Under the pieces are notes generated by a model that had not been told where the DNA came from, made no database searches, and was given only the letters and a program-made list of their open reading frames with translations. DNA of 5,297 bases. Source: a virus. Lineage: Duplodnaviria; Heunggongvirae; Uroviricota; Caudoviricetes. The stretch is taken from IMG/VR virus record IMGVR_UViG_2675903562_000006; one strand, written 5' to 3'. Of this stretch, positions 1-5,297 are shown one piece after another; the first letter of the stretch is position 1, and every line of letters begins with the position of its first letter. A program made the position numbers and the translations under genes.

Positions 1-338
1 TGTTTAATAAAACTTTGCCCGCGAAGCAGACGATCAACCGTGCGAAGTGCTTCGTATAATGTGAAATCCTGCCCGAAGTGATTGTCGCCGCAGTTCAATG
101 CAAAAATGCGGTTTCCGGTAAACGGATTGCGTGGGCATTTGTGGATCACGATTCCAGCTTTCTCAATCAGCCAGGCATGCTCGCCGATTTGTTTTACAGC
201 GTGGCCATCCGGTGTTGCGTGCGTCTCGTTCAGGTTATAGCGACTGTTACTACGTGATGCACTGGTAGCGACGTGGTGTACATGGCGTTCTACGCTATTA
301 CGAAATTTGGAGTATGGATTATTAGCGTTTTTTTTCAT
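1..338 (-). CDS. Hypothetical early-operon protein, partial (N-terminus in window, continues past position 1)
   Basis: ATG at 338 is the first start after the in-frame stop of the upstream gene (360-362). The frame stays open to the window edge and is not in the ORF track for that reason. My translation begins MKKNANNPYSKFRNSVERHVHHVATSAS... and contains a His/Cys-bearing segment (HKCPRNPFTG...NCGDNH). Only a weak GAG Shine-Dalgarno about 9 nt upstream. No family recognised. Confidence 0.45.
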   Translation of the reverse strand, partial: MKKNANNPYSKFRNSVERHVHHVATSASRSNSRYNLNETHATPDGHAVKQIGEHAWLIEKAGIVIHKCPRNPFTGNRIFALNCGDNHFGQDFTLYEALRTVDRLLRGQSFIK

Positions 339-359
339 GATGGTGCTCTGTTCATTGTT

Positions 360-563
360 TTAGCTGTTAGCCAAAGCGTCTTTTAACATCGCCACAAGGT
401 TTACTTCAGGCTTTTCCATTTTGGCGCGTTTGGGGCGGATAATAATTCGACCGTCAGCCAACATCTTTTTGCATGTATTAAGAGGGATACCTGTTATCTC
501 TGCATATTTCTGCAGGGATACATAGGGGGCATTCACATTGATATTGATGGTTATACCTGACAT
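360..563 (-). CDS. Small HTH DNA-binding protein, Cox/Apl/AlpA-like excisionase-regulator (67 aa)
   Basis: Strong AGGAGG Shine-Dalgarno 8 nt upstream of the ATG on the minus strand. The segment PYVSLQKYAEITGIPLNTCKKMLADGRIIIR resembles, from memory, the HTH region of P2 Cox (PYQEFAKLIGKSTGAVRRMIDKGKLPVI). Position matches the early operon of a P2/186-type switch. Confidence 0.7.
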   Translation of the reverse strand: MSGITININVNAPYVSLQKYAEITGIPLNTCKKMLADGRIIIRPKRAKMEKPEVNLVAMLKDALANS

Positions 564-579
564 CCCACTAGCCTCCTGA

Positions 580-786
580 TCAGGAAGATTTGTTTTGTTC
601 TTTCTGGGTTAGCTCTAGGCCGCGAAGGAAGATCATGCGCGCCATGTTAGAGGATGAGCGTTGTTCTTTAGCTGCCATTTCATCAATGACGGCTCGCTCC
701 TCGAGGGACAGCCGAAGTGCCAGTCTTGGACCTGTGGCGGTGTTACGCGGAATGCGTGATCTGGTATCGTGAAGAACTTGTTTCAT
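580..786 (-). CDS. Ribbon-helix-helix (CopG/MobC-like) DNA-binding protein, 68 aa; possible Cro-like regulator
   Basis: RLALRLSLEERAVIDEMAAKEQRSSSNMARMIFLRGL fits an RHH pattern (basic beta-strand followed by two helices). Coding-like codon use, while the antisense ORF 590-772 is Arg/Ser-rich junk. An in-frame stop at 802-804 fixes the start at 786. No Shine-Dalgarno, so possibly a leaderless or short-leader mRNA. Confidence 0.6.
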   Translation of the reverse strand: MKQVLHDTRSRIPRNTATGPRLALRLSLEERAVIDEMAAKEQRSSSNMARMIFLRGLELTQKEQNKSS

Positions 787-862
787 AGTGGTATATTGTG
801 ATCATCTAATAGCTCGTGAAATCATTTTGGTATCAAAAAAGATACCTGTCAAGGTTTTTTGT
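787..862. promoter_or_regulatory. Divergent/face-to-face switch region with putative operator half-sites
   Basis: Perfect inverted repeat GGTATC-N6-GATACC at 829-846, with further GGTATC/GGTATA copies at 762-767 and 790-795. Minus-strand TTGACA (-35) at 847-852, next to the repeat. Plus-strand extended -10 TGgTATATT at 789-797. The inferred transcripts would be convergent, as in the P2 Pe/Pc and 186 pR/pL arrangement. Confidence 0.4.
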
Positions 863-1267
863 ATGAAAAATGATATTGGTCAGCGGTTGCGTGAGGAAAG
901 GGAAAGATTGGGACTTAGTCAAGTTGCCATGAGCGACATTGGTGGAGTCAAAAAGCTAACTCAGCTTAGATATGAGAAAGGAGATAGCTTTCCTGATGCT
1001 GCGTATTTGGCAGCGCTGTCTCGTTTTGGCCTTGATGTTCAGTATGTTGTGTTGGGAATTCACTCACCTGAAACTTATAACGATGATGAGCAGGAGTTGA
1101 TTACTCGCTTTCGAGCAGCTTCGTTAGATGTGAAAAACGCGGTGATTGGGGCTTTAAAAGGTGCGATCAGTGAAAAGGAAACTCAGCCATCAGGACGTGA
1201 GTTAAATATTTCTGGTGGTAATAACCGTATCGCTGGTCGTGACTATAACGAAACTAAGGGTAGGTGA
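863..1267 (+). CDS. XRE-family (Cro/C1-type) HTH transcriptional regulator, 134 aa; candidate immunity repressor
   Basis: IGQRLREERERLGLSQVAMSDIGGVKKLTQLRYEKGDSFPDAAYLAALSRFGLDVQYVVLG is a typical HTH_3/XRE domain near the N-terminus. AAGG Shine-Dalgarno 8 nt before ATG 863. The ORF track starts at 788, but that adds 25 aa with no Shine-Dalgarno and overlaps the control region. No S24 peptidase domain in the C-terminal tail. Confidence 0.7.
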   Translation: MKNDIGQRLREERERLGLSQVAMSDIGGVKKLTQLRYEKGDSFPDAAYLAALSRFGLDVQYVVLGIHSPETYNDDEQELITRFRAASLDVKNAVIGALKGAISEKETQPSGRELNISGGNNRIAGRDYNETKGR

Positions 1268-1282
1268 TAGTAGGGAGGTGAC

Positions 1283-1933
1283 ATGGCCGTCAACTCAAAC
1301 GGTTCAAACAATCGCGTTGCTGGGCGTGATTTTCACGAAAAGAATATTCAGATAGAGCGATATGATGGTTCTCATACCGTCAATATCGCAATCCCTTCGA
1401 ATAATGATGATGACGATCGCCCTTTGCTTAAGGCTCAGCGTAAGGAGCTAAATAGCTTGGTTGCTGCTATTGCAGAAGCTAGCAATACTGAAGCGTTTAT
1501 TATTTGGCAAAAAGTACATGCGGAGATTGGTGTAGCTGGTATTGATGATATGACAGTAAATCAATATAAAACAGCGGAGAGTTTTCTGCATGCAATGCTT
1601 GAGCGATGTAAAGATCATGATGCCTGTAAGGCTCTTGTAAGTTTATTACTACGTAACAGTGAAGACTGTGGACTTCGACAAAAACTTCTGCGGTATTGCC
1701 ATATCAATTTCGGTACAGGACGTTTAAACGATCTTACTCGTTCTCAGTTACAGTCTGCATTGTCGTGGTTAGAGCAACAATCGGCATCAAGCCACACAGA
1801 GAGTTCGACCTTACCAGAAGTCCGACTTCGTGCTTCAGAATTAATCCGACTTTATCCAAAAGAAATAATATTCTTTATCTGCGTAGGGGTTTTGGTAGGC
1901 GGTGTCATTTCTAGGGCGTTTTTTAATTTGTAA
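1283..1933 (+). CDS. Hypothetical tail-anchored membrane protein (216 aa, single C-terminal TM helix)
   Basis: GGAGG Shine-Dalgarno at 1274-1278. The N-terminal ~190 aa are hydrophilic and the C-terminus IIFFICVGVLVGGVISRAFF is one hydrophobic helix. The N-terminus carries the NNRVAGRDFHE motif also found at the end of the upstream regulator. No catalytic motif recognised. Confidence 0.65.
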   Translation: MAVNSNGSNNRVAGRDFHEKNIQIERYDGSHTVNIAIPSNNDDDDRPLLKAQRKELNSLVAAIAEASNTEAFIIWQKVHAEIGVAGIDDMTVNQYKTAESFLHAMLERCKDHDACKALVSLLLRNSEDCGLRQKLLRYCHINFGTGRLNDLTRSQLQSALSWLEQQSASSHTESSTLPEVRLRASELIRLYPKEIIFFICVGVLVGGVISRAFFNL

Positions 1934-1962
1934 TCTTACTTGAGCTAAATTGAGGTAATGAT

Positions 1963-2310
1963 ATGAAAGTAAAAAAGGTTCAACTATTAGTTACTTTTTT
2001 ATCTATGTTTTCTTTTTCCGCCGTCGCAATGCCTTTTAAAACTATTGAACGTGAGAGTTTCAATGGGGTATGGCCATTTAATACTGATGAGGTTCAATTA
2101 CAGTGTCTTGATGGTAATCCTTATGTGATGAATTTTGACGATAATAAGTTATATGCACTTACAGGTTTGGCTCGAATAAAAGGTAAAACATTTGGTGCGT
2201 TACCGTTAGATAACAATAATCCATTTTGGCTAGATAATGATGCCGCCCCAGGGTTAAAAAAGAGCCTGGGGGATGTCACTAAGGCTGCATTTGATTTATG
2301 TGATAAGTAA
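1963..2310 (+). CDS. Small secreted/periplasmic protein (115 aa) with Sec signal peptide and two Cys
   Basis: GAGGT Shine-Dalgarno 8 nt upstream. Signal peptide MKVKKVQLLVTFLSMFSFSAVA with an AVA signal-peptidase I site and no lipobox. The precursor has two Cys (residues 48 and 113), compatible with one disulfide. The stop lies 5 nt before the integrase ATG, so the two are probably translationally coupled. Confidence 0.7.
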   Translation: MKVKKVQLLVTFLSMFSFSAVAMPFKTIERESFNGVWPFNTDEVQLQCLDGNPYVMNFDDNKLYALTGLARIKGKTFGALPLDNNNPFWLDNDAAPGLKKSLGDVTKAAFDLCDK

Positions 2311-2315
2311 CTAAA

Positions 2316-3317
2316 ATGTCGGTTCGTAAGATTCCATCAGGTAAATGGCTTTGCGAATGTTATCCCTACGGGGCATCGGGAAAACGCATTCGTAAACAGT
2401 TTGCGACAAAAAGTGAGGCGCTCTCTTATGAGCGCCGTTTAATGAATAGTAGAGTTGGAGACGAGTTTCAAGATGGTTCTGGTCCTCGTCTTTCTGAGTT
2501 GATTGCTCGTTGGTTTGAGATGTACGGTAAAACCTTGTCCTCTGGTGCAGAGCGCAAAGTCAAACTTGAGGCGATTTGTTCCAGGCTGGGAGATCCATTT
2601 GCTTCTCAGTTTGACAAAAATATGTTTGCCACTTATCGGGAAAGAAGGTTATCAGGAGAGTGGAATCCCAAGGGGAAGAAAAAACTTAGTGAAGCAACCG
2701 TTAATCGCGAGCAGTCATATCTACATGCTGTTTTTGCCGAACTGAAGCGCCTTGGGGAGTGGTCTGGTGAAAACCCCCTGACTGGTATTCGCAAGTTTCG
2801 TGAGGAAGAAAAGGAACTGGCGTTTCTGTATGTAGATGAGATTGAACGCCTTCTGATTGCGTGTGATGAGTCACGGAATAAAGATTTGGGGGTTGTTGTC
2901 CGTATTGGGCTTGCGACTGGTGCTCGGTGGAGTGAAGCAGAAGGGTTAAAGCAATCTCAAGTACTGCCCGGTCGAATCACATTTGTTAAAACTAAAGGAA
3001 AGAAGAACCGCACTGTACCGATTTCACCTCAATTGCAGGCTATGCTTCCCAAAAAACGAGGAGCGCTATTTTCACCATGTTATGAGGCTTTTGACGCTGC
3101 AATTAAGAGAGCGAAGATCGAGCTTCCTGATGGGCAATTAACTCATGTGCTACGTCACACGTTTGCCAGTCATTTTATGATGCGGGGCGGAAATATTCTT
3201 GTGTTGCAAAAAATACTGGGGCATAGCGATATAAAAATGACTATGCGTTATGCTCATTTTGCTCCAGGTCATTTAGAGGCTGCTGTTGAATTGAACCCTT
3301 TTGACAATAGAGGGTAA
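2316..3317 (+). CDS. int: Tyrosine site-specific integrase, P2/186 family (333 aa)
   Basis: The C-terminal catalytic region ATGARWSEAEGLK...RITFVKTKGKKNRTVPIS...THVLRHTFASHFMMRGGNILVLQKILGHSDIKMTMRYAHFAP matches, from memory, the P2 Int box I/box II region including the R..H-x-x-R..Y pattern. The N-terminus GKRIRKQFATKSEA resembles P2 Int GKRIRRKFDKKSEA. The gene points at the att fragment, as P2 int does. Confidence 0.9.
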   Translation: MSVRKIPSGKWLCECYPYGASGKRIRKQFATKSEALSYERRLMNSRVGDEFQDGSGPRLSELIARWFEMYGKTLSSGAERKVKLEAICSRLGDPFASQFDKNMFATYRERRLSGEWNPKGKKKLSEATVNREQSYLHAVFAELKRLGEWSGENPLTGIRKFREEEKELAFLYVDEIERLLIACDESRNKDLGVVVRIGLATGARWSEAEGLKQSQVLPGRITFVKTKGKKNRTVPISPQLQAMLPKKRGALFSPCYEAFDAAIKRAKIELPDGQLTHVLRHTFASHFMMRGGNILVLQKILGHSDIKMTMRYAHFAPGHLEAAVELNPFDNRG

Positions 3318-3383: not shown

Positions 3384-3403
3384 AAATCATAAGGTTATGA
3401 TTT
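3384..3403. repeat. AT-rich inverted repeat AAATCATAA-GG-TTATGATTT next to the att core; possible IHF-like site
   Basis: Perfect 9-bp inverted repeat with a 2-bp spacer. AATCATaaggTTA at 3386-3398 is within one mismatch of the IHF consensus WATCAANNNNTTR. Confidence 0.3.
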
Positions 3404-3423
3404 ATAAATGGTGGTTGATAGTT

Positions 3424-3478
3424 TTTAAAATCCCTCGGCGTTCGCGCTGTGCGGGTTCAAGTCCCGCTCCGGGTACCA
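3424..3478 (+). other. Attachment-site core: 3' 55 nt of a tRNA-Leu(UAA) gene (anticodon loop to CCA), not an intact tRNA
   Basis: TTTAAAATCCCTCGGCGTTCGCGCTGTGCGGGTTCAAGTCCCGCTCCGGGTACCA contains the anticodon loop with TAA, a long variable arm, the T-arm GCGGG/TTCAAGT/CCCGC, the acceptor 3' strand, discriminator A and CCA. From memory it matches the 3' part of enterobacterial leuZ. No complementary 5' acceptor strand (G/ACCCGGA) exists upstream, so the gene is truncated at the anticodon loop, which is typical of an att core. Confidence 0.7.
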
Positions 3479-3520
3479 TGGGAAAGACAAGAATAATCAA
3501 AGCAATAAGCAGTGTCGTGA

Positions 3521-3543
3521 AACCACCTACGGGTGGTTTTTTT
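3521..3543 (+). terminator. Rho-independent terminator
   Basis: AACCACC-TACG-GGTGGTT is a 7-bp stem with a 4-nt loop, followed by TTTTTTG. It sits 43 nt after the tRNA 3' end and downstream of int. Confidence 0.6.
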
Positions 3544-3578
3544 GTGCCTGAAATTCACGCCCTGTGCATATCCTGTGC

Positions 3579-4460
3579 TCACGGGGTGCAATGAGCCGCA
3601 ATCTCCAGCCTGGCAATGCCGAATCGAACGTGTCGCCTCCAGCATAGAGAACCAGGCCGCTTTGCCTGTTTTCCGGTACTCTTCCGGGAAGGGTGGCCTG
3701 CTGAGCAAGTTGTAATGCTCTGGCCGCCCTTAGTACAAAGTTGCTTAATTCGTGCAATCACCTCATCTCTGTACTTCTGGTGTCCGCGCATAGCCCTTGG
3801 ATGGGCAATTCTGAAACAGATTGTATTACCTGTTTTGAACTCCCACAGCTTCCCCGGAATGACTGAAGAAGTCTCATAACCGCCCAGCTCAGTAAGCACC
3901 TGTTTAATGATGTAGTCTGTTCTCCGGGCTCCGGATGCAAAGATCATGAAATCAGGCTCAAGGTGTTTAATTTGTACCGCCAGCAGCTTCAGCGAGGCTA
4001 ATATGACTTCCTGCACTTCATTTTGAGGGCGATTGAGAGGGGTCAGTCCGTCGTAATCCCACGCCAGTAGATTGGCATACACGATAGCCTGAGGAGGAAT
4101 ATTAAGCTCCCGGGCCAGCCTGAAATGATATTGCGTGAAGCGGCTACGTGATTTGAGGTTGGTGGTGCCATCATTTTGTACCGGAAGATGTTTCCTGTAA
4201 CGATCTACAGCTTCTTCAACCACCTGCCCGATGGTGACGTCAGGCATAAGTCCCAACACCCGTGATATCGTATTCTTACCATTCAGCGTATTCCAGCCTG
4301 CGGTTTCACGTCTAACCAGCATGATTTTTACCGGTGAATGCCAGTATTCTTCAAACGGCACGGGTAAAAAGACGCCTGAGTATTTATCTTCATTCAGGTT
4401 AAATGACTGGGCGTCAACTTCCTGTAATATCCGTTTGTACGCGTCTAATAGCCTTTCCAT
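3579..4460 (-). CDS. Hypothetical protein, 293 aa, divergent from the downstream integrase; function unknown
   Basis: Long ORF with a protein-like N-terminal ~240 aa. The last ~55 aa are low-complexity and Arg/Ser/Cys/Gly-rich, and overlap GC-rich repeat-bearing DNA. Weak, unverified resemblance to uracil-DNA-glycosylase superfamily motifs (KIMLVRRETAG near the N-terminus, AHPRAMRGH near the C-terminus). No Shine-Dalgarno check was made. Confidence 0.55.
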   Translation of the reverse strand: MERLLDAYKRILQEVDAQSFNLNEDKYSGVFLPVPFEEYWHSPVKIMLVRRETAGWNTLNGKNTISRVLGLMPDVTIGQVVEEAVDRYRKHLPVQNDGTTNLKSRSRFTQYHFRLARELNIPPQAIVYANLLAWDYDGLTPLNRPQNEVQEVILASLKLLAVQIKHLEPDFMIFASGARRTDYIIKQVLTELGGYETSSVIPGKLWEFKTGNTICFRIAHPRAMRGHQKYRDEVIARIKQLCTKGGQSITTCSAGHPSRKSTGKQAKRPGSLCWRRHVRFGIARLEIAAHCTP

Positions 4461-4540
4461 TCTTCAATCCTGCCCCGTAATAAAAACACCTTCAGATATA
4501 TATTATTTTCATGATATCAATCAGATATATGAGGATAAAT

Positions 4541-5297
4541 ATGCAAAAATCCTTCCGATTCACCAATTCATCCATCAAAGCCCTTCCGGCAAACACAGAT
4601 ACCCGATCTACAGAGCTTGAGGTATCCGATACTGAGGTCATTGGCCTCAAATGCCTCTCAGGTCGAACGGGTAACAAACGTTTCCTCCTGCGCTACACAT
4701 TCCACGGTACCAAAAAAAGTATCAGTATTGGCAGATTCCCTGAAATTGATGTGGGGACAGCCCGTCAGATAGCTCGTCGTCACAAGGAGGCGATTGCACT
4801 GGGAAATGACCCTAAGGCAGAACGCGATAATTATCGTGCTATGCCAACGCTTAGTGAGTTTTTTCACCAGACCTATGTTCCGTTCATCAAACGCCATAAA
4901 AAGTCCTGGGATAAGGATGTTCAGCGTTTCACGCAATACATTGAACCTTGTCTGGGGAAGATACGTTACTGTGACCTTCGGGCCCGGGAAATCCAGCAGG
5001 TGCTTTTCGACATGCTTGAGGGTCGTATTCACGGGCAGCAATATGCGCCGTCTACCTGTAACAGAGCCCTTGCTATTCTGAAAACGATGGGGCGTTATGC
5101 GTTGCGACAGGATGTGCTGGAAAAGAATGAAGCCGATAAGATCCCTTTACTGAAAGAGAATAATCAGCGGACGCGCTTTTTTGATGCTGATGAGATCAGG
5201 TGTCAACGCCAAGATTATTGGCCGTTTTTCGCCATTTTTAATGTCCGCTATTGGTCATTAATGTTGTCCGCTTTCCGCCATTTCATCATCACTGATT
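4541..5297 (+). CDS. int: Tyrosine integrase of the P4/DUF4102 (arm-binding N-domain) type, 3'-truncated by the window end
   Basis: GAGGA Shine-Dalgarno before ATG 4541. My translation MQKSFRFTNSSIKALPANTDTRSTELEVSDTEVIGLKCLSGRTGNKRFLLRYTFHGTKKSISIGRFPEIDVGTARQIARRHKEAIALGNDPKAERD has the characteristic N-terminal layout of P4-like and genomic-island integrases. The frame is open to position 5297, which is why it is missing from the ORF track. Confidence 0.8.
   Translation, partial: MQKSFRFTNSSIKALPANTDTRSTELEVSDTEVIGLKCLSGRTGNKRFLLRYTFHGTKKSISIGRFPEIDVGTARQIARRHKEAIALGNDPKAERDNYRAMPTLSEFFHQTYVPFIKRHKKSWDKDVQRFTQYIEPCLGKIRYCDLRAREIQQVLFDMLEGRIHGQQYAPSTCNRALAILKTMGRYALRQDVLEKNEADKIPLLKENNQRTRFFDADEIRCQRQDYWPFFAIFNVRYWSLMLSAFRHFIITD

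Follow-up and report, generated by a model that had tools for sequence, protein, structure and literature searches.

Identity of the gene and of its element

The locus described here raises the question of what a 293-codon gene is doing between an attachment (att) site and a divergent integrase, in a 5,297-nucleotide stretch of DNA (the window, from here on) deposited as IMG/VR virus record IMGVR_UViG_2675903562_000006. The original prediction, made from the sequence alone, took the gene for an orphan and a candidate single-gene cargo of a phage satellite or island, perhaps with a defence or addiction function, and saw in it a weak resemblance to the uracil-DNA glycosylase (UDG) superfamily. 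We propose that it is the UDG-superfamily gene of a pipolin, that its intact product is likely a glycosylase with an accessory role in defence, and that the copy in the window is probably inactive; we put the probability of this reading as a whole at about 60%. Pipolins are integrative elements with a gene of their own for a primer-independent family-B DNA polymerase (piPolB), and in enterobacteria their att repeats overlap a tRNA-Leu gene (PMC7385651). The features on which the argument draws first are these:

3424..3478, plus strand: 3' 55 nt of leuZ (tRNA-Leu), a partial copy, identified by homology to the prophage-free strain M9682-C1
3424..3550, plus strand: pipolin att direct repeat, tRNA-proximal copy ("attR" in the pipolin literature)
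3579..4460, minus strand: predicted open reading frame, 293 codons, ATG to TGA
3723..4460, minus strand: conserved 246-codon coding sequence of a UDG-superfamily ("pipolin UDG") protein
4461..4541: divergent intergenic region of 81 bp, AT-rich, between the UDG-like gene and the integrase
4542..5200, plus strand: att-proximal tyrosine recombinase (P4/SXT family), first 659 nt, truncated
5201..5297: end of ISEc62, an IS21-family insertion sequence (IS) inserted in the integrase gene

The window is Escherichia coli DNA, as positions 3400-4560 are 100% identical to several chromosomes of the enterotoxigenic E. coli (ETEC) type, for example those of strains 99-3165 and TW10598. The layout that had been predicted for this region stands: the 293-codon frame is real, it diverges from a P4-type integrase that starts at 4542 on the plus strand, and it lies between that integrase and the att repeat at 3424-3550. 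Intact, the integrase has the Pfam domains Arm-DNA-bind_3 and Phage_integrase, the first of which places it in the P4/SXT family. A second att copy of 129 bp and 96.9% identity stands directly before yecA (L064:19712-19840, strain 99-3165), and the two copies therefore delimit the element.

Read from leuZ to yecA, the 20-kb element of strain 99-3165 consists of the gene, a 399-aa integrase, two orphans, a DUF2787 gene, a DUF726 gene, a WYL/WCX regulator, genes for an 865-aa and a 211-aa protein, a small helix-turn-helix (HTH) gene, a second tyrosine recombinase and finally, before att and yecA, IS elements and degraded cargo. The 865-aa protein, encoded 6 kb further on and thus beyond the window in genomes that are 100% identical over 3400-4560, has only a weak match to PF03175 (family-B polymerase), and its orthologues in other strains are named "DNA-directed DNA polymerase" by the annotation pipeline PGAP. 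The published enterobacterial pipolin comprises piPolB, an att-proximal IntSXT-type recombinase, DUF2787, WYL, orphans, and IntP2 with an excisionase (PMC7385651; PMC11551731). With piPolB in the identical genomes, att repeats that overlap tRNA-Leu, and an SXT/P4-family recombinase accompanied by DUF2787 and WYL, the element at leuZ is a pipolin.

The gene itself has been described before. A "uracil-DNA glycosylase" was reported in 87 of 92 E. coli pipolins, with Q96YD0, the S. tokodaii UDG, as its best HHpred hit (Flament-Simon 2020 Table S3, PMC7385651), and this gene is said there to share synteny with the tRNA-end recombinase (PMC7385651); ExplorePipolin gives it a standard colour of its own (PMC9710591). 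The window gene likewise adjoins the tRNA-Leu att repeat, keeps the same synteny with the att-proximal recombinase and has the same best match; it is the already described pipolin UDG-like gene, which is near-constant in E. coli pipolins and so not the single-gene satellite cargo of the prediction. It is not one of the six genes of the gammaproteobacterial pipolin core (PMC11551731).

A P4/SXT-family integrase with an Arm-DNA-bind_3 domain, inserted at a tRNA gene, would also suit a gene carried singly in the hotspot of a P4-like phage satellite. However, no alpha primase-helicase, psu, delta, sid or cos is annotated in the element of strain 99-3165 or of other strains, and the identical genomes hold the pipolin core instead, with piPolB, DUF2787, WYL, a second recombinase and an excisionase-like HTH protein. 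We have rejected the satellite, which is the most improbable of the explanations considered here, and the P4 psu-int hotspot is no longer a relevant comparison.

Pipolins have been described in the literature as defence islands. In strains AR_0137 (L065), O145 RM11626 (L062) and SF10 (L066) the cargo varies from strain to strain and includes type I restriction-modification, DUF262 (GmrSD-like), a peptidase of the M48 family, and a YecA-family gene together with one for a cold-shock-domain protein. Where IS1 or IS3 has brought about a deletion, piPolB or most of the integrase is gone, but the UDG-like gene is intact.

Fold and conserved motifs

The resemblance to the UDG superfamily holds up. 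The AlphaFold2 model, for which 35 homologues were used (mean predicted local distance difference test score 90.4), shows the predicted alpha/beta fold, with the central parallel sheet of UDG families 1-6, and its top matches in the PDB, as found by Foldseek, are only UDG families, namely family-4 UDG, UdgX, SMUG1 and TDG (E 2e-5 to 1e-3). The structural neighbours include vaccinia D4 and, in the viral library, phage UDGs and the UDG-like domains of phage family-A polymerases. Profile searches point the same way, in that PF03167 is matched by 35 of 101 remote family members (best E 8e-7) and a broadened profile of the family (A3) matches the S. tokodaii family-4 UDG 4zbx at E=3.3e-5, its sole significant PDB match; a narrow profile (A2) matched nothing among the PDB sequences at E<=10.

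The two segments singled out in the prediction, KIMLVRRETAG and AHPRAMRGH, are both present and are the two most conserved motifs of the family. In the A3 alignment the family's "cyRiaHPsa" lies on motif B, "vfptYHPAA", of 4zbx, HP on HP; the corresponding segment of the window copy reads AHPRA, and the H-P-R loop follows the last core strand. At the other end of the protein, the modelled strand beta1 (46-50) leads into G50-R-E52-T-A-G-W56-N, at what would be the position of motif A, the catalytic loop known in GQDPYH, GEAPG and GINPG types. In an alignment of 101 sequences with 21-50% identity to the window protein, conservation is at least 90% at each of G50, E52, W56, N130, H220 and P221, and in the close family D135, R144 and R222 are near-invariant in addition. 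These nearly invariant polar residues (E52, N130 and H220, and in the close family D135, R144 and R222) make an enzyme more likely than a scaffold, which is one of the differences from the viral UDGs and UDG-like polymerase domains.

The name "type-4 UDG" found in the literature should be taken as a nearest-neighbour label and not as membership, because the four Fe-S cysteines of that family are missing: C215 is the only cysteine invariant in the close family, and none reaches 90% conservation in the wide alignment. The family-4 UDGs of S. tokodaii (4ZBX/4ZBY), T. maritima (1L9G) and T. thermophilus (1UI0) are 13-15% identical to the window protein, and compared with them the window protein is about 50 residues longer, with extra helices, no conserved 4-Cys [4Fe-4S] signature and no direct Pfam match. 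Aligned by hhalign with E. coli Ung and Mug, A3 gave no significant match; the motif-A-like loop falls on GQDPYH of Ung in an alignment that is itself non-significant (E=0.11).

A decayed allele in a decaying element

Compared with the published pipolin UDG, the window allele differs in a G50R replacement, a lost stop codon and an IS-split integrase beside it. The first two of these concern the following positions:

3579..3719, minus strand: 47-codon read-through extension into the element's 3' flank, unconserved as protein
3720..3722, minus strand: codon 247, CAG (Gln), at the family stop position, a stop-loss mutation
4311..4313, minus strand: codon 50, AGA (Arg) for Gly, first residue of the motif-A-like loop after strand beta1

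The length of 293 aa is thus a read-through artefact, the last 47 codons being 3' flank. In more than 55 homologues inspected all proteins end at 241-261 residues, before the extension, and the position of codon 247 is occupied by TAG in the closest relatives and by TAG, TAA or TGA among relatives generally; in P0002, a frameshifted relative, the DNA of the extension is read in a different frame and makes up the tail of the protein. Three replacements, G50R, I72M and I172M, are private to the window lineage. Residue 50 is Gly in all other homologues examined (more than 50), and among the homologues inspected both G50R and the stop loss are confined to this lineage. Of 5,426 E. coli genomes, 28 contain the exact 61-mer around the stop loss and 24 that around G50R, and the two lesions mark one clone of about 25 genomes, about 5% of carriers. 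The PGAP annotation of genomes that match the window at 100% has 3723..4460 as a pseudogene. From G50R and the stop loss we infer that the window copy is probably inactive.

The integrase alongside has fared no better. Strain 99-3165 has it at its full 1,200 nt, and 4542..5200 of the window is 100% identical to L064:1230-1888, where the homology stops; the 97 nt that follow, 5201..5297, match the outer end of ISEc62 in M9682-C1 (L002:16168-16264) at 100% in reverse orientation. As the integrase is split by this IS21-family insertion, we regard the element as decaying, and the locus is most simply read as a pipolin that is immobilised and decaying and whose UDG-like gene is damaged. M9682-C1 carries ISEc62 (L002:13778-16264) at the same position of the integrase, and the window junction matches the opposite IS end, reversed; the ISEc62 copy appears to have inverted between otherwise identical lineages.

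The 293-aa product could also be a functional, lineage-specific variant in which the extension and G50R are tolerated or adaptive. The frame is open for 293 codons behind a good ribosome-binding site (an AGGA that the sequence shows 7 nt ahead of the start codon at 4460), the allele has become fixed in a clone of about 25 sequenced genomes, and comparison of the window allele with its relatives still gives a low ratio of nonsynonymous to synonymous substitution (dN/dS), 0.10-0.27. Yet this low ratio is mostly shared history that predates the lesions, the added residues are unconserved 3' flank, and the residue replaced is otherwise Gly throughout the homologues examined, with at least 90% conservation in the alignment of sequences that are 21-50% identical; with the pseudogene call and the disrupted integrase next door, we consider a functional variant unlikely.

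The read-through also shows in the PHROGs match of the window protein. It is to phrog_29550, of "unknown function", whose profile length of 293 indicates that it was built from the read-through allele; prophage boundaries drawn too wide beside the P2-like prophage that precedes the pipolin in the window probably explain its existence. We have accordingly rejected phrog_29550 as evidence for a phage gene. Three PHROGs groups represent pipolin genes: this one the UDG-like gene, and phrog_32947 and phrog_28971 the two orphans that follow the integrase.

Distribution of the family and neighbourhoods of its members

The gene is no orphan. At E<=1e-3, a word-indexed search found 172 cluster representatives, and an exhaustive hidden Markov model (HMM) search found 485 clusters at 50% identity; the members are nearly all 240-260 aa and are spread across the Gammaproteobacteria. 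Within E. coli the gene is carried by 532 of 5,426 complete genomes, or about 10%, always on the chromosome, and the family is among the most constant of pipolin genes. The closest relatives, 94-98% identical, are in Enterobacter, Citrobacter, Franconibacter and Buttiauxella, and the arrangement of leuZ, gene and integrase is kept in these and in a 78%-identical copy in Shimwellia, so that the supposed association with integrases and mobile elements proves real when the neighbourhoods of homologues are surveyed. The intact enteric alleles are under purifying selection, with a median dN/dS of 0.2 over 66 pairs. By comparison with the 532 genomes that hold the UDG-like gene, piPolB is present in 295 E. 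coli genomes; strain AR_0137, for one, has lost piPolB to IS1 and has an intact UDG-like gene. In Atlantibacter hermannii (L070/L071:8001-8771) an intact 256-aa homologue stands alone between eutC and the tRNA cluster with pgsA, beside leuZ and without integrase or pipolin genes, a locus that looks like the retained remnant of a lost element.

More distant relatives occur in defence islands. In Marinobacter a relative lies between ZacABC and HIT with PDC-S36/NOV_C, in Proteus one adjoins Mrr and a type I restriction-modification system, and on Pseudomonas and marine contigs the order is WYL, ADP-ribosylglycohydrolase, a 113-aa partner, the UDG-like gene and then BrxR and ZorA; in Stutzerimonas a relative stands last in a series of small genes without annotation, next to an integrase. 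No piPolB was found within 6-8 kb on each side of the relatives in defence islands.

The acidic partner gene, of 109-113 aa, accompanies the UDG-like gene in 29 non-enteric loci, which is most of those examined, nearly always immediately upstream with an overlap or a gap of at most about 15 bp, and downstream in one locus (examples are L054:7672-8001, L058:7657-7986 and L067:7647-7988). It has no match in Pfam, PHROG or PADLOC. One protein, P0123, is a fusion whose N-terminus matches the partner HMM at E=2e-14, and P0121 and P0161 are probably also partner/glycosylase-like fusions. An ADP-ribosylglycohydrolase is found beside the pair in nine loci (L031, L033, L034, L035, L037, L038 and L067-L069); it precedes the pair in Halopseudomonas and Pseudomonadaceae, follows it in Marinobacter, and is often accompanied by a WYL regulator. 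In enteric loci and pipolins a six-frame search gave no match to the partner at E<=1.

These two sides of the distribution bear on the suggestion of an addiction function, in which a DNA-damaging glycosylase held in check by an antitoxin would stabilise the island. The tightly linked acidic partner of the non-enteric relatives superficially resembles the small half of a toxin-antitoxin pair, or an inhibitor of the Ugi kind, but the enteric loci have neither partner nor antitoxin in any frame and nevertheless keep intact genes in hundreds of genomes, and the fusion of partner and glycosylase is more readily explained by an accessory or sensor domain than by a labile antitoxin. The addiction function finds no support here, and we hold such a module to be very unlikely.

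A model for the function of the intact gene

The model that most reasonably fits these observations is one in which the intact 246-aa protein would act as a monofunctional DNA glycosylase. It would flip a pyrimidine-type base out of the helix and cut its N-glycosidic bond, leaving an abasic site behind, and its role, to judge from gene context, would most probably be an accessory protection of host and element against invading DNA that contains non-canonical bases.

Within this model we favour, by analogy, an antiviral glycosylase of the Brig kind over a role in repair or replication, because the relatives lie in defence islands, often with the 109-aa partner and an ADP-ribosylglycohydrolase. 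Two further points speak for defence: the gene outlasts piPolB in E. coli (532 against 295 genomes), and E. coli already has Ung and Mug. Brig1, Brig2 and Brig3 are single UDG-fold antiviral proteins that excise modified bases (PMC11078745; 10.1101/2025.10.29.685425; 10.64898/2026.02.25.707755). Like them, the present family has a single-domain UDG fold of about 250 aa with the S. tokodaii UDG as best structural match, its relatives, if not the window gene itself, are found in defence islands, and a tightly linked accessory gene is sometimes present; an ADP-ribosylglycohydrolase neighbour, recurrent beside the relatives of the window gene, has been reported for Brig1 homologues and for the brig3-bapA operon. 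Profile searches of the PDB sequences, however, returned no Brig entry, and the residues reported as essential in Brig3 (N50-P51-S52, E55, W100, D127 and N225) do not match the family motifs (G50-R-E-T-A-G-W-N, N130 and H220-P-R). We also tried the 109-aa partner as a BapA and rejected it, since BapA exceeds 250 aa and has two beta-barrels. Taken a step further, the family might be an unrecognised branch of antiviral Brig-like DNA glycosylases, excising a modified pyrimidine or another non-canonical adduct, whose enteric branch was captured in pipolins, beside their integrase; in that case, piPolB copying past abasic sites could let element and host, unlike phages, tolerate collateral excision. 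This extension we offer tentatively, as possible rather than probable.

The chief competitor is a glycosylase that serves the element itself, removing uracil or damaged bases from DNA made by piPolB, or acting with piPolB in damage tolerance. Translesion synthesis across abasic sites has been shown for piPolB (PMC5695915). Replicons with their own polymerases often carry UDGs, and the structural neighbours of the family include vaccinia D4 and phage polymerase domains; the gene could on this account be likened to the UDGs of pox- and herpesviruses and to the UDG-like domains fused to phage DNA polymerases. As with vaccinia D4 and phage family-A polymerases such as that of phiLo, a UDG fold here rides on a mobile replicon that has a DNA polymerase of its own, but unlike these viral UDGs and polymerase domains it is encoded by a separate gene, 6 kb from piPolB and not universally linked to it. 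The presence of the gene in 95% of E. coli pipolins, its synteny with the att-proximal recombinase and the purifying selection on it would all be expected of a maintenance function, and the near-invariant N130 and H220 may suit a uracil-type pocket. Against this, the gene is outside the six-gene core of gammaproteobacterial pipolins, its frequency in E. coli is nearly twice that of piPolB, it stays intact where piPolB has been deleted or the whole element has gone, its relatives in defence islands have no piPolB within 6-8 kb on each side, and the host is already provided with Ung and Mug. We therefore rank the defence role ahead of element maintenance, which we regard as rather doubtful.

Several considerations weigh against the reading that we prefer, a pipolin glycosylase with an accessory defence role whose window copy is probably inactive. 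The window protein matches no Pfam (E<=1), NCBIfam or PADLOC model. The placement of motif A rests on modelled topology and on the non-significant hhalign alignment with Ung. No biochemical or phage-challenge data on any family member were found in the literature searched. A defence-island context is seen only in relatives that are 43-56% identical, most of which have the partner that is missing from the enteric version. The near-constancy of the gene in E. coli pipolins and its conserved place on the integrase side, which are unlike typical defence cargo, fit element maintenance equally well. Finally, G50R and the C-terminal extension are no proof of inactivity, and the loss of function of the window copy is read from these lesions.

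On balance, a defence role is a reasonable hypothesis. For the window the result is mostly one of correction, as "orphan satellite cargo" becomes a known pipolin UDG-like gene, present as a decayed allele in a decaying element and for these reasons no lead for a new system. The interest that remains attaches to the family and the Brig-like hypothesis and not to this decayed copy. If the defence reading is true, the family could be another member of the recently discovered glycosylase arm of bacterial immunity, and the reason why pipolins keep the gene could become clearer.

The tRNA junction, the 3' flank and the upstream prophage

No complete tRNA was found in the window by ARAGORN. The homology to M9682-C1 starts at window position 3424, within the annotated tRNA-Leu of that strain; this is leuZ, the last gene of the glyW-cysT-leuZ cluster, which follows pgsA. 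At the 55 nt of 3424..3478 an upstream P2-like prophage has its right junction and the pipolin att repeat begins; the prophage occupies the left part of the window:

1-3317: right end of a P2-like prophage, including HTH repressor-like, membrane-protein and DUF2511 genes
2316-3317: prophage integrase with Int_N domain

Two integrative elements accordingly stand in tandem at leuZ, and as the prophage junction and the pipolin att both begin at 3424 (leuZ position 33), the arrangement suggests that the recombinases of the P2-like prophage and of the pipolin use the same part of the tRNA gene.

A consensus promoter scan found no sigma-70-like site in the intergenic region 4461..4541. The 170-nt 3' flank of the gene (3551-3722) is GC-rich (about 53%) and conserved with the gene across E. 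coli, and the same flank is recognisable downstream of the Pectobacterium brasiliense homologue (L012:6741-7013), which has no integrase nearby. It contains a weak hairpin at 3668-3653 on the minus strand, and Rfam gave no match at E<=1 in the whole window, this flank included; the flank may hold arm sites of the recombinase or a terminator.

Between the early region of the prophage and its integrase, 788-2310 is a stretch of low GC content (35-41%) with three genes, for an HTH protein of 159 aa with weak RmrA/control-protein-like matches, a membrane protein of 216 aa and a DUF2511 protein whose N-terminus is signal-like. These may be cargo or exclusion genes of the prophage.

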